NCBI GenBank assembly: GCA_964016885.1 | Contig: OZ024740.1 | Span: 330,460,001-330,524,000, forward strand | DNA: 64,000 nt | Source of the DNA: Eledone cirrhosa | Lineage: Eukaryota | Direction of reading: 5' to 3' | Part shown: positions 24,996 to 54,921 of the stretch, piece by piece | Layout of the letters: each line of letters opens with the position of its first letter | How positions within the stretch are numbered: the stretch's first letter is position 1 | The notes under the pieces: generated by a model | Told to the model about the DNA's origin: nothing | Seen by the model: only the letters and a program-made list of their open reading frames with translations | Databases searched by the model: none | Translations under genes and position numbers: made by a program

Positions 24996-25038
24996 ACGAT
25001 GTACTAGTTTCAAGCTTGTTAGCTATCATCAGCACCGT
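24996..25038 (-). ncRNA. Type I hammerhead ribozyme (family C)
   Basis: Minus strand reads acggtg CTGATGA tagct aaca agctt GAAAC TA GTA catcgt. Stem I is fully paired and stem III is the palindrome ACTAGT. Confidence 0.85.
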
Positions 25039-25467
25039 ATACCCATCTACCAGATAATTGAACGTTCGAAAGTATATACTTTCCTTATGAAAATTAACGG
25101 CTGAGCAGCCTAATTTGCATATCGAGTGAGCTAAGTCGGTCAGGCATACCGAAAACGATAAGTTGAAATAAAATGAAAACGAAATTTCATTTCTCACTCT
25201 TAGTACGGCACTTAATTAAATGTAAGTATGTGCGTATACGTACATACATATATGTATACAGACGTACAGTACACACATACTTACATTTAAGTAAGTGCCG
25301 TACTAAGAGTGAGAAATGAAATTTCGTTTTCGTTTTATTTCAACTTATCGTTTTCGGTATGCCTGACCGACTTAGCTCACTCGATATGCAAATTAGGCTG
25401 CTCAGCCGTTAATTTTCATAAGGAAAGTATATACTTTCGAACGTTCAACTATCTGGCAGATGGGTAT

Positions 25468-25510
25468 ACGGTGCTGATGATAGCTAACAAGCTTGAAACT
25501 AGTACCTCGT
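25468..25510 (+). ncRNA. Type I hammerhead ribozyme (family C), one stem I mismatch
   Basis: acggtg CTGATGA tagct aaca agctt GAAAC TA GTA cctcgt. Confidence 0.8.
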
Positions 25511-50745: not shown

Positions 50746-53300
50746 TATATATATATATATATTCTTTATATATATATATATATATATATATATATATATA
50801 TATATTCTGTATATATATATATATACATATATACATACATGTATACATATATATATATATATATATATATATATATATACATGTATATATATATATATAT
50901 ATATATATATATATATATATATATATATATATATATATATATATATATATATATATATATATATATATATATATATATATATATATATATATATATATAT
51001 ACAGAGAGAGATATAAATATTTCGTTTATATGTGATTTGAGAAGAAAGAGATGTTAAACAAATACATAGTAGACGTATTGAATAATCATTTTGATGATAT
51101 CACTGTTGGCAAATATCATGTGTTTATAATATGGTTTTCATAAACAATGTAGAGACATGAAGGCCCCACCGCAGCGTGTTAGTGCAGATATAGACTTTCA
51201 CAGCAACTAATAGTACGCTGTTATGTTCACCCTGTGAAACAACTGGATATCTAAAGAAATGATAAACAAGCTATCACCATGTGTATAAATACATACATGC
51301 AAACAGACACATTCAGAGACCAACGTAGACGCATATATAAATAGAGAGAGAGTATGAAATCAAGGTACAGAAACAGATAGAAGAGATGAATGATTAAATA
51401 GATAGATTTACATATAGATAGACAGCTAGCGAGAAATAAATAAATATATATATATATATATATATATATATATATATATATATATATAAATGAAAAGTAT
51501 ATATATATATATATATATATATATATATATATATATATATATATATATATATATATATATATATATATATATATATATATATATATATATATTTATATAT
51601 TATATATATATATATATATAAATAATATATATATATATATATATAGATACATAGATAGATAGATATACAGATACACGCATATATTCATACATACACACAT
51701 TAATAGATAGATAGATTGATGAATATAATACATTTTCGACGGGTAATATTATATAATAATCATGTGGAAGAAAGGAGGCGTTATTAAGTAGTATATCATA
51801 TATATATATATATATATGTGTGTGTATGCGTTATGTGTGTGGGTGTGCGTGTGTGTGCGCCTGTGCGTGCCCGTATGTATGTCTGTGTGTGTATCCCGCG
51901 TTCAATTGGGGGTAACCACAGTAAGTAAGATACTCAATACATAGCAGAGTATAAATGTTTAATATAAAAGTGTCTTGTACTTGACCAGATCTGTTTTCTT
52001 TCGAAGAAAATCATTGGGAATCACTGGCCCTGTAGAAGACATATATATATATATAAATATATATATATTTACAGACACACACACACACACACACACACAC
52101 ACACACACACGCACACACAACACACACACACACACACACACACACACACACACACACACACACACACACACACACACATATATATATATATATATATATA
52201 TATATATATATATATATATATATATATTTATATATGTATGCATGTATATGTATATATATATATATATATATATATTGTGTGTGTGTGTACTTGTGTCTCT
52301 GAGTGTGTTTATTTGTGTATGTTCGCTTCAAATTTATTCAATAAAATATTGCAACTCAAAAGAAGAACAGTATCTACATCAAATGGATGATAATAGAACA
52401 CTATCGACTGTAAATAAATGAGCCCAGCCGAGCAAATTTTGAAATAAGGAAAACTAGTCGATATTCAATAACCTCCACAACAACGTTTGATGATTTAATC
52501 CCCGACAGAATTATTCTGCCTATGCCCCCAAGGATATAAACACATTTTATTGAGCTAGTATCCTTAAATGTTGATATTAGCCTTCCCCACAAATATATAT
52601 TATTATATTTCACTTTTATCTATCCCCTTCTAAATTCTTAGTGCCGTAGATGGAAGTGTCCCCTAAAATAACATTTTTGGGAGCTCCCGTTTTTTTTTTT
52701 TATTTCTTTTAGTAAACATTTACCGGTGCGTTCCGATCTGTCCAGGTCGACCAAGTTGGCCCTGAAGCCCAACGAACGGTTTGTCCTTGGTGCTGTGCTG
52801 TGCTGTCGGAGTTGAGTTGCTCAATACCTTGAACATATTTACCAAATGATTACTAATACCAGTAATATATATATATATATATTTATAATTATCTCCAAAT
52901 TATTTGTTGAGCAAAATTTGCCAAATTACTACTGTGACTGATAGTAGTAGCTAGGCTCTGTCTTAATAGCACCCCCACTCCAAGCTGGTTAACCTCAGTG
53001 TCACGTGATTGATTCTTTTGAATTTGCCACTTGACCAAGAAGGCAGTGAATTTTTCAATGGCTTGGAATCTAGCCCCGCTCGCTTTTTTCCATCCACTGA
53101 ATTATTTTTATATAAGTTCCCAGTGTCCCCGCATTGCCTGGAAACTTAGCTGAGAATAGACTCCCTGATGACGTAAGCCTTCTCTATAGTTATTACGTAA
53201 CTATATTTATGTCCTTACAGAAACTAATTAGTTGGAGTGAAATTTTAGTAAGTAAGTCAATTTTCATAACTTTCTTATTTACGTCTTTCATATATATATA

Positions 53301-54921
53301 TAAAAACAAATAACGAAACGAAATTAAATTTCGTTTCGTTTGTAACTCACTTTTGTATGACTGACGCTTAAACAATTAAGTTAAAAATGTACATCCACAT
53401 ATGTATACTGAAATACTAGTATGCATATGAATACACACACGTGTACATATGTAGATGTACCGAGTTTTCACTGGTCACTTTACTGTGAGTGTCCAGCTAT
53501 TCTGTATGTAAACACACAGACAAACCGGTTCTTAGAGTCATACTGGTTTTTGAGGAAACACCTTTCATCTATTCTCCAGAAAGCCAGACAAGGAATATTG
53601 GACTAGTTTCGATGTTGTTACATCTCATCAGCAATATTTACCTATCTTCCGGCTTCTCTAGAGAATCGTGAAAGCACATATCGTTATATGCTTTTTCTAT
53701 GAAAATTAGTAGTGGGCAGACCAATTTGCATAGAGCGTGAGTACGTACCGGTTCAACGGAGACGATAAAAACAAATAACGAAACGAAATTAAATTTCGTT
53801 TCGTTTGTAACTCACTTTTGTATGACTGACGCTTAAACAATTAAGTTAAAAATGTACATCCACATATGTATACTGAAATACTAGTATGCATATGAATACA
53901 CACACGTGTACATATGTAGATGTACCGAGTTTTCACTGGTCACTTTACTGTGAGTGTCCAGCTATTCTGTATGTAAACACACAGACAAACCGGTTCTTAG
54001 AGTCATACTGGTTTTTGAGGAAACACCTTTCCTCTATTCTCCAGAAAGCCAGACAAGGAATATTGGACTAGTTTCGATGTTGTTACATCTCATCAGCAAT
54101 ATTTACTGGTCTGCCCACTACTAATTTTCATAGAAAAAGCATATAACGATATGTGCTTTCACGATTCTCTAGAGAAGCCGGAAGATAGGTAAATATTGCT
54201 GATGAGATGTAACAACATCGAAACTAGTCCAATATTCCTTGTCTGGCTTTCTGGGGAATAGAGGAAAGGTGTTTCCTCAAAAACCAGTATGACTCTAAGA
54301 ACCGGTTTGTCTGTGTGTTTACATACAGAATAGCTGGACACTCACAGTAAAGTGACCAGTGAAAACTCGGTACATCTACATATGTACACGTGTGTGTATT
54401 CATATGCATACTAGTATTTCAGTATACATATGTGGATGTACATTTTTAACTTAATTGTTTAAGCGTCAGTCATACAAAAGTGAGTTACAAACGAAACGAA
54501 ATTTAATTTCGTTTCGTTATTTGTTTTTATCGTCTCCGTTGAACCGGTACGTACTCACGCTCTATGCAAATTGGTCTGCCCACTACTAATTTTCATAGAA
54601 AAAGCATATAACGATATGTGCTTTCACGATTCTCTAGAGAAGCCGGAAGATAGGTAAATATTGCTGATGAGATGTAACAACATCGAAACTAGTCCAATAT
54701 TCCTTGTCTGGCTTTCTGGAGAATAGAGGAAAGGTGTTTCCTCAAAAACCAGTATGACTCTAAGAACCGGTTTGTCTGTGTGTTTACATACAGAATAGCT
54801 GGACACTCACAGTAAAGTGACCAGTGAAAACTCGGTACATCTACATATGTACACGTGTGTGTATTCATATGCATACTAGTATTTCAGTATACATATGTGG
54901 ATGTACATTTTTAACTTAATT
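53301..54921. mobile_element. Retrozyme-like family B, locus 2: ~1.7 units (-) at 53301-54105 plus ~1.75 units (+) at 54106-54921
   Basis: Period 465 (duplicate ORFs 53421/53886 and 54159/54624). HHRs at 53594-53638 (-), 54059-54103 (-), 54192-54236 (+) and 54657-54701 (+). (TA)n on both sides. Confidence 0.9.
54192..54236 (+). ncRNA. Type I hammerhead ribozyme (family B), second plus copy at 54657-54701
   Basis: aatattg CTGATGA gatgt aaca acatc GAAAC TA GTC caatatt: 7-bp stem I, 5-bp stem II, ACTAGT stem III, GUC triplet. Confidence 0.92.

Follow-up and report, generated by a model that had tools for sequence, protein, structure and literature searches.

Repeat families and arrays in the window

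The window, that is, the whole 64-kb stretch of DNA analysed, was searched for the hammerhead pattern CTGATGA-N(3-6)-TAACAA-N(3-6)-GAAAC. This produced 20 exact matches from 25007 to 54689, compared to 0 matches in 100 dinucleotide-preserving shuffles of the window. When up to two mismatches were allowed, one further copy was found on the (-) strand at 46229-46254, with TAAAC in place of GAAAC. All 20 intact copies presented the type I hammerhead core, CUGAUGA...GAAA...UH, in the right order and with the right spacing. Helix II divided them into three families, namely A (ATTC/GAAT, 12 copies, 310-bp unit), B (GATG/CATC, 5 copies, plus 1 copy of a GTTG/CAAC variant; 465-bp unit) and the related family C (TAGC/GCTT, 2 copies); the helix II variants assigned to each family in the initial annotation were thus all present as stated. 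In family C, helix II had just three Watson-Crick pairs, position 10.1/11.1 being occupied by U.U. GAA was followed by the letters ACGCGT in family A and ACTAGT in B and C, and the next letter was A, C or T, giving the cut site GUH. A free scan for CTGANGA...GAAA with a helix II of at least 3 bp found no hammerhead candidates with other loops in the window: its 18 matches all carried TAACAA. The two family C copies lay outside this set because their first helix II pair is U.U.

All four loci in the window were inverted pairs or arms. The first is an inverted pair of family C copies, with a left arm at 24898..25236 (-) (core 25007-25032, predicted cut between 25002 and 25001) and a right arm at 25254..25640 (+) (core 25474-25499, predicted cut after 25504, GUA). 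Both copies have a helix I mismatch, which in the left copy is a C where the other genomic C copies have A, and neither is in tandem. The second locus consists of two family A arrays, one of 3.3 units of 310 bp at 32631..33648 (-) with cores at 32801, 33111 and 33421, and one of 9 units of 310 bp at 33648..36438 (+) with cores at 33789 + 310n and predicted cuts after 33819 + 310n (GUA). The units of the (+) array were 99-100% identical. The outer ends of the (-) and (+) arrays lie directly against (TA)n, at 32601-32632 and 36429-36458, respectively.

At the third locus, a family B fragment of the GTTG/CAAC variant (46021..46126, (+); core 46043-46068, predicted cut after 46073, GUU) is followed by an inverted family B copy (46127..46429, (-)), whose core at 46229-46254 is broken by a change of G12 of GAAA to U. 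The adjoining arm of 1.3 units (46426..47032, (+); core 46774-46799, predicted cut after 46804, GUC) terminates at unit position 227, directly against (TA)n at 47032-47122. The fourth locus has a family B left arm of ~1.7 units of 465 bp (53300..54106, (-); cores 53606-53631 and 54071-54096) and a right arm of ~1.75 units (54107..54921, (+); cores 54199-54224 and 54664-54689, predicted cuts after 54229 and 54694, GUC). On the outer side, the left arm stops at unit position 301, beside a short (TA)n, and the right arm at unit position 227, directly against (TA)27 at 54921-54974.

The GC content was 35% for the family A unit (310 bp) and 37% for the family B unit (465 bp). The predicted circular unit RNAs were far more structured than shuffles, with z = -4.6 for A and z = -10.4 for B (60 shuffles each). 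When compared outside the ribozyme, families B and C showed a clear similarity (z = 19), and no similarity was found between the family A unit and B or C (z ~1.9, with 10-13 of 200 shuffles reaching the score). The ribozyme itself is shared between A and B/C as a gap-free module of 53 letters with a common loop and bulge.

Helix pairing and predicted dimers

A gap-free alignment of 79 columns was made from 18 copies, comprising 4 from the window and 14 of 20 loci hand-picked from the genome-wide motif list. The layout in these copies was that of the canonical metazoan type I hammerhead, with 6 bp in helix I, 4 bp in helix II, loop letters that are conserved and a helix III of 1-2 bp under a palindrome of 2-4 letters. 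Paired cells reached 92.2%, compared to 71.4% in shuffles (0 of 500 reached the observed value), and pairing fell to 37-55% when the partners were slid. Within this sample, whose independent lineages are few (A, B plus C, and a third), 13 of the 17 pairs were changed on both sides, including 5/6 in helix I and 4/5 in helix II. The covariation of helix II between families, as claimed initially, was therefore borne out and was also seen in helix I. The central pair of the palindrome likewise changed on both sides (UA in 12 copies, GC in 5 and AU in 1). Within family B, run X1, which consists of contigs of unrecorded kind, showed 54672 A>T at 33% and its partner 54683 T>A at 35% of contig depth.

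As described in the initial annotation, the stem III sequence is ACGCGT or ACTAGT and is too short for a hairpin; helix III cannot close in this way because just two loop letters would remain. Co-folding of two 111-nt segments of family A gave -73.5 kcal/mol versus 2 x -32.8 kcal/mol for the single segments, with the 6-bp ACGCGU duplex formed, and 111-nt segments of the B variant behaved like family A. For the main B form and C, the lowest-energy dimer of the 111-nt segments was not a double hammerhead. In two-unit transcripts, the ACGCGU duplex was within the minimum-energy fold of A, and forcing the palindrome duplex in B cost 0.4 kcal/mol. The proposed pairing of the palindromes between copies, as dimers, is thus predicted for A and the B variant and is the mode published for animal type I hammerheads of this kind (PMC4209133; PMC7229834). 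From their design, self-cutting by A, B and C would be expected only on pairing of two copies.

The G10.1-C11.1 pair, which is typical of active hammerheads, was missing in A and C. At this position, family A has A-U, with U.U in ~71% of X1 depth, and family C has U.U. Judging from the sequence of this pair, families A and C may perhaps be slow or inactive ribozymes.

Relationship to known hammerheads and to Penelope-like elements

Rfam gave 0 matches at its gathering thresholds. The best match was to Hammerhead_HH9 (RF02275), at full length, with 21.5 bits for A and 38.9 bits for B versus a cut-off of 52, these scores being under the cut-off because of the deleted helix III. HH9 resembles A, B and C in its 6-bp helix I, 4-bp helix II, A-rich six-letter loop, UA-containing bulge on the 5' strand of helix I and U on the 3' strand. 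It differs in that its helix III, of 3 bp, carries a 5-letter loop and in that it acts as a monomer, whereas A, B and C are without helix III; its loop is CAAAAA rather than UAACAA, and its helix I internal loop is 4 x 3 compared to the smaller 3 x 1 here. As HH9 shares the layout of loop and bulge, the conserved loop A's would be those of the canonical loop-loop contact. They and the helix I bulge are likely to make this usual type I contact.

In the canonical type I hammerhead of animals, helix I is 6 bp and helix II 4 bp long and the loops interact (PMC4209133), and a short palindromic helix III works as a dimer, e.g. in newt and axolotl (PMC4209133; PMC7229834). By its sequence layout, the design of the A, B and C ribozymes matches this published hammerhead of non-LTR retrozymes. 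The retrozyme features given in PMC7229834, i.e. non-coding tandem repeats, a GC content of <45% and one type I hammerhead per unit, were all present. According to the same paper, retrozymes of 170-400 nt are expressed as circles, and the family B unit (465 bp) is slightly above the published range of ~170-400 bp.

Several known systems can be compared with the present families. The axolotl hammerheads HHR_Amex1 and HHR_Amex2 of satellite 2, as described in PMC7229834, are type I in tandem repeats of ~330-350 bp (310 and 465 bp here). Their helix III is one base pair plus a palindromic tetraloop, like A-CGCG-U and A-CUAG-U here, and their activity is dimer-dependent, the same mode being predicted for A, B and C. 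In one axolotl variant the base of helix II is a U.U mismatch, as it is in families A' (the U.U form) and C, and copies number in the tens of thousands in both systems. This likeness is by description. The loop here is UAAYRA. Coral and mussel non-LTR retrozymes (PMC7229834) are, like A and B, tandem repeats of small size and low GC that carry a type I hammerhead, and their unit RNAs are likewise predicted to be highly self-paired; however, their hammerheads are reported to have a stable helix III and to cleave as monomers, whereas those here are by prediction of the dimer-only type. The minimal and small-palindrome hammerheads of Penelope-like terminal repeats (Cervera and de la Pena 2014, PMC4209133) share the palindromic helix III. 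For these, dimer action was proposed, the copies lie 100-700 bp from each other, tandemly or on opposite strands, and, as here, one genome holds many consensus families with compensatory changes. They differ in that their helix II is longer (6-8 bp), their helix I is short and their loops make no contact with each other. Among the literature matches listed, there was no paper on hammerheads in cephalopods, and the species lists and figures supplementing PMC7229834 may already contain A, B and C or families like them.

Penelope-like elements are reported in PMC8557442 to form partial tandems with adjacent inverted 5'-truncated copies and to have a bias for (TA)n. This signature was seen here in the inverted pairs or arms of all four loci and in the (TA)n at the outer ends of the A and B arrays, and the strand switches inside arrays were minus-then-plus in 11/11 cases among the matches listed. 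The head-to-head arrays against (TA)n therefore fit insertion by Penelope-like elements. Such elements are abundant in the genome, where all 150 of the scored GIY-YIG candidates matched (of 10,596 candidates), and a Penelope-like RT-EN remnant lies 2.5-4.4 kb past the end of the window. Retrozymes are stated to derive from the ends of Penelope-like elements (bioRxiv 10.64898/2026.07.22.740005). The element next to the window carries a hammerhead of the minimal, small-palindrome kind that differs from A, B and C, its loop being GAAA and its palindrome AGUACU. The A/B/C ribozyme was absent from all 12 Penelope-like element loci examined, and no family B or C match and no autonomous element with the A/B/C ribozyme was found in these 12 loci. 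One element remnant (locus L024) matched the family A body at 78-82% over 62-97 nt.

Two candidates were discarded. A 1040-aa ORF between ribozyme copies at locus L021 was considered as Penelope-like but proved to be a LINE, with endonuclease/exonuclease/phosphatase, RT and PHD finger domains; at locus L022, between ribozyme copies a few kb apart, there was no useful long ORF. A CAACA-loop hammerhead lying downstream of a GIY-YIG remnant (L024/L035), at a distance of ~950 bp, was considered as a link between element and family A, and was dropped because a further copy of this ribozyme (L036) had no element ORF nearby.

From these features, the following cycle can be postulated as likely. An array would be transcribed as a multimer, in which the ACGCGU (A) or ACUAGU (B and C) of two hammerheads would pair to form a shared helix III, and each ribozyme would then cut after GUH. 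The long helix I would keep the freed unit of 310 or 465 nt closed and so help a host RNA ligase to join it into a circle. A Penelope-like reverse transcriptase and endonuclease would copy this RNA round and round into (TA)n, leaving two head-to-head arms. Tandem organisation may be required, as proposed in the initial annotation, two cuts per transcript being needed to release a unit, but hammerheads on separate transcripts may also pair.

Loop variation and alternative explanations

The initial annotation described the UAACAA loop as invariant. This held in the window, where TAACAA was found in 21/21 copies, the broken copy included, but not in the 3.0-Gb genome, where it was carried by 28,009 (62%) of the 45,001 motifs whose helix II/loop is 14 letters long. 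The larger sample thus refuted in part the initial claim that the loop is conserved. A distinct hammerhead subfamily, in which an invariant UAACAA cap makes its own tertiary or protein contact, was also proposed. It would account for the retention of the loop while all four helix II pairs change, for the invariance of alignment columns U36, A37, A38 and A41 in the 18 rows, and for the departure of loop positions 1 and 4 from the HH9 consensus. In all copies, pairing is also possible between the U and the final A of TAACAA, which makes helix II equally readable as 5 bp under an AACA cap, and this U1-A6 pairing would give a tetraloop. Against it, loop positions 4 and 5 vary, with TAACGA and TAATAA occupying several separate arrays. 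Among the matches listed, the 15 family A loci had TAACAA in 8, TAACGA in 5 and TAATAA in 2, and TAATAA was present in 3 family B loci; in the X1 contigs, 34114 A>G accounted for 26% and 54678 C>T for 24% of depth. The further hammerhead families of the genome have the loops UAACCA, CAACCA, YUAAUA or GAAA. Furthermore, HH9 has the conserved A's and the UA bulge at the aligned positions, and its matching layout, A-rich loop and UA-containing helix I bulge leave a separate subfamily unsupported and, on balance, unlikely. The shared design is instead explained by a single ribozyme module that was inherited or retained. The natural variants seen comprise the loops UAACAA, UAACGA and UAAUAA, A-U, U.U or G-C at 10.1/11.1, and two palindromes.

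The arrays could alternatively be inert satellite DNA, amplified at the DNA level and carrying the hammerhead as a relic without present activity. The 99-100% unit identity within an array is obtainable by unequal exchange too, and A and C lack the G10.1-C11.1 pair; however, compensatory changes preserve helix I and II pairing both across families and within B, and the intact 12-letter core is present in ~45,000 copies in the genome compared to 118 for the reversed-pattern control. The two-armed form with (TA)n ends also recurs at many loci, which argues for insertion events over growth in place, and an inert satellite is considered very unlikely. Monomer action in vivo, in which the open helix III would be held by a protein or chaperone and the palindrome would be a by-product of descent, was likewise judged very unlikely. 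Even when dimeric, published minimal Penelope-like hammerheads show poor cleavage in vitro, and an involvement of host factors was suggested for them (PMC4209133). ACNNGT-bearing motifs numbered 38,818 genome-wide (14 for the reversed-pattern control), and the 97.5% that are ACTAGT (23,560) or ACGCGT (14,304) might largely stem from two founder sequences. Conversely, a hairpin cannot close with a two-letter loop, the central palindrome pair differs on both sides between families (GC, UA, AU), and dimer-dependent cleavage was shown for the axolotl hammerheads with one base pair plus a palindromic tetraloop (PMC7229834). Finally, since A and B/C share the 53-letter module without similarity elsewhere in the unit, the hammerhead could be a portable cassette, captured or exchanged between unrelated retrozymes, with the palindrome as a pairing code against mixed dimers. 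Though improbable, this would mean that ACGCGU versus ACUAGU keeps co-resident lineages from unproductive mixed dimers.

The reading preferred here, and held to be probable, is that the 21 copies represent one hammerhead motif in three non-coding repeat families with the known dimer-type retrozyme design. That design is real but ordinary, being of a kind already described, and the present understanding of hammerheads is left unchanged by these families. A known class gains three abundant retrozyme families, the 3-Gb genome holding ~14,000 ribozyme copies of the ACGCGT type and ~23,600 of the ACTAGT type. The curated thresholds of Rfam miss all A, B and C copies, and standard annotation thus leaves ribozyme motifs unmarked by the tens of thousands. 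The natural variants of the loop, of position 10.1/11.1 and of the palindrome provide a ready mutational series with which the dimer model and the loop-loop contact could be probed. A helix III of the dimer-only type, hitherto emphasised in amphibians, would, as modelled, also be dominant here.

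Hammerhead copies and their pairing

A search of the window with the exact pattern CTGATGA-N(3-6)-TAACAA-N(3-6)-GAAAC returned 20 matches from 25007 to 54689 and none in 100 shuffles. Permitting two mismatches added one copy, at 46229-46254 on the minus strand, with TAAAC replacing GAAAC. The motif is carried by three non-coding repeat families. Family A comprises 3.3 units of 310 bp on the minus strand (32631-33648) and, directly after this arm, nine units on the plus strand (33648-36438), the units being 99-100% identical. Family B, with a 465-bp unit, occupies two loci, 46021-47032 (B1) and 53300-54921 (B2), and family C consists of two single copies forming an inverted pair (24898-25640). 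The initial annotation gave the helix II variants and hexamers (ACGCGT in A, ACTAGT in B and C) correctly. The base 3' of the hexamer was A, C or T, which predicts cleavage at GUH. Helix II of family C opens with U.U. In all copies the first U and last A of TAACAA are able to pair, so helix II may alternatively be read as 5 bp capped by an AACA tetraloop.

To assess the structure, 79 letters around the core were aligned without gaps from four window copies and 14 copies from a hand-picked list of 20 fetched genomic places, the other six being excluded as chance matches or for lacking the ACNNGT form. The 17 pairs tested were divided among a distal stem (3), helix I (6), helix II (5) and the palindrome (3). 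As a measure of consistency rather than a formal probability, since the sample was small, picked by the authors and contained only about three independent lineages, standard pairs occupied 92.2% of cells, compared to 71.4% in the shuffled control (observed value reached in 0 of 500 shuffles) and 37-55% when partners were slid by 1-3 columns; both sides changed in 13 of the 17 pairs. In X1, a sequencing run seen as contigs of unrecorded kind, family B showed A>T at 54672 at 33% of contig depth and T>A at its pairing partner, 54683, at 35%. This within-family change is independent support for the structure.

The palindromic helix III

The hexamer (ACGCGU or ACUAGU) lies directly 3' of GAA, where a copy by itself has only A-U and C-G available as pairs, leaving two letters for the loop. 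A loop of two letters is unable to close, so helix III is impossible in a single copy, and it never formed in the predicted monomer folds. For two 111-nt segments of family A, the predicted co-fold reached -73.5 kcal/mol compared to -65.6 for two monomers and contained the six-pair duplex together with both hammerheads; the GTTG variant of B behaved likewise. The lowest-energy predicted dimers of the main B form and of C relied on other contacts. For transcripts of two units, the hexamer duplex was present in the predicted minimum-energy fold of A, and forcing it in B cost 0.4 kcal/mol. The dimer design put forward in the initial annotation appears, on these predicted folds, to be right. Pairing of separate transcripts could stand in for pairing within one tandem, and families A and C may be slow, as they are without the G10.1-C11.1 pair.

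Genome-wide counts covered the 3.0-Gb assembly, in which a 443-Mb contig contains the window. ACNNGT followed GAA in 38,818 motifs (reversed-pattern control, 14). Of these, 23,560 were ACTAGT and 14,304 ACGCGT, together 97.5%, a share due mostly to descent as there are two large lineages.

Array architecture and Penelope-like elements

All loci in the window are inverted, the minus-strand copies preceding those on the plus strand, and arrays A, B2 and B1-right border on (TA)n at their outer ends. Among the ACGCGT matches listed genome-wide, strand switches within arrays were minus-then-plus in 11 of 11. Penelope-like insertions are characteristically described as partial tandems with a 5'-truncated copy in inverted orientation beside them and a preference for (TA)n targets (PMC8557442), and a 2026 preprint (10.64898/2026.07.22.740005) describes animal retrozymes as derived from the ends of such elements. 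We infer that the arrays may have been inserted by Penelope-like elements. The genome is full of these, with 10,596 GIY-YIG candidates and matches for all 150 of those scored. A Penelope-like RT-EN remnant lies on the minus strand 2-5 kb (2.5-4.4 kb) past the right end of the window (2069-4707 of the adjoining stretch, L037). Over about 620 aa it matches long ORFs at other places in the genome with 49-51% identity. A hammerhead of its own, unlike that of A, B and C, borders it on each strand, with a CUGAAGA core variant, a GAAA-loop helix II and an AGUACU palindrome; the same motif was found at another fetched place, L034. No autonomous element with the A, B or C ribozyme was found among the Penelope-like loci examined in the genome.

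The ends of the family B arms were repeatable, at unit position ~301 on the left (minus) and ~227 on the right (plus), both in the window (53300-54921) and at the fetched place L021 (arms 1875-2947 and 7712-8273); the right end of B1 was likewise at 227. Loose ends of X1 contigs running into AT repeats coincided with family B arm ends (54456-54461 and 54530). In family A, the left arm stopped at unit position 165 and the right arm at 139. The differing, repeatable ends suggest that the RNA template has two separate priming sites. A 1040-aa LINE open frame (4288-7410) with an endonuclease/exonuclease/phosphatase domain, RT and a PHD finger is flanked by the two arms of the L021 insertion.

Two inverted repeats were also seen in the window. 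The first, at 49146-50539, is a near-perfect palindrome with its centre at 49856; its arms are 98-100% complementary, the inner ones lie 1 nt apart, and it has no hammerhead core. The second pair (47122-47307 and 47317-47502) directly follows the (TA)n tract bounding the B1 array. Three further runs (X3, X5 and X6, with other coded organism labels, which may be different species) each held one 340-letter family A contig, 310 letters plus a 30-letter overlap, with 2-3 differences from window 33820-34439. Family B contigs of X3 and X5, compared with window 54230-54760, wrapped round by 465 letters. The overlaps and wrapping indicate that A and B units are near-identical, and tandem or circular, in these data too.

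Loop variation and class assignment

With the loop left free, CTGATGA-N14-GAAAC occurred 45,001 times in the genome (reversed-pattern control, 118), and 28,009 of these (62%; control, 0) carried TAACAA. The invariance claimed for this loop was therefore not upheld. The 15 family A loci among the first 100 ACGCGT matches listed had TAACAA (8), TAACGA (5) or TAATAA (2), several being full two-armed arrays, and TAATAA was present in family B arrays at three loci among the matches listed. In X1, G was found at 34114 in 26% of depth (UAACGA) and T at 54678 in 24% (UAAUAA). Non-TAACAA loops are not merely scattered decay; their presence in several arrays and in X1 indicates that variation at loop positions 4 and 5 is carried by spreading subfamilies. 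U1, A2, A3 and A6 were constant in the 18-copy alignment.

Variants at 10% or more of X1 depth occurred at four positions along the 310-bp unit of family A (33978, 34095, 34106 and 34114), three of them within the ribozyme. One turns a G.U of helix I into A-U, another replaces A with U at position 10.1, and the third replaces A with G at loop position 5. Differences between family A subfamilies therefore appear to cluster in the hammerhead. Among the genome's other hammerhead families, loops were UAACCA, CAACCA, YUAAUA or GAAA, and helix III was longer or otherwise different. At least four, at the fetched places L004, L005, L006, L008, L012 and L035 (loops UAAUAA, UAACCA, CAACCA and YUAAUA), had a 2-bp helix III with 3-6 letter loops that could close in a single copy.

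Rfam gave no match at curated thresholds. In a permissive search, Hammerhead_HH9 was the best full-length match for A (21.5 bits) and B (38.9 bits), against a cut-off of 52. Its consensus loop CAAAAA aligned to UAACAA and its bulge UUAC to the helix I bulge containing UA, while its helix III was deleted. These shared loop and bulge positions speak against the proposal of a distinct subfamily. The conserved loop A's and the helix I bulge would occupy the positions of the type I loop-loop contact, which a review describes as reverse Hoogsteen pairs (PMC6155905). The tertiary contact suggested in the initial annotation is thus likely, as an ordinary type I contact rather than a special one.

The "canonical" metazoan type I hammerhead, as described by Cervera and de la Pena (PMC4209133), has a 6-bp helix I, a 4-bp helix II, a contact via conserved loop letters and a helix III that has 1-2 bp and ends in a palindrome of 2-4 letters; the short palindromic helix III is reported to leave the monomer inactive, while two tandem copies can fold as a dimer. 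A 2020 paper from the same laboratory (PMC7229834) assigns such hammerheads to non-LTR retrozymes. Its axolotl motifs are described as having a helix III of a single base pair closed by a palindromic tetraloop; one variant has U.U as the basal pair of helix II, and cleavage was much better with dimeric constructs. Families A, B and C, as known from sequence and predicted folds, fit this description. The unit RNAs of A and B had a GC content of 35-37%, the predicted circle folds were far more stable than shuffles (z = -4.6 and -10.4), and the two ends of the unit RNA were held next to each other by a long helix I in the predicted fold.

Beyond the ribozyme itself, B and C show a clear relationship (z = 19, with 70-76% identity over stretches of 58-121 letters), whereas A showed no similarity to B or C (z about 1.9). 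The design therefore spans two deep lineages with one common 53-letter module, and A, B and C are additional members of an already described hammerhead/retrozyme class.
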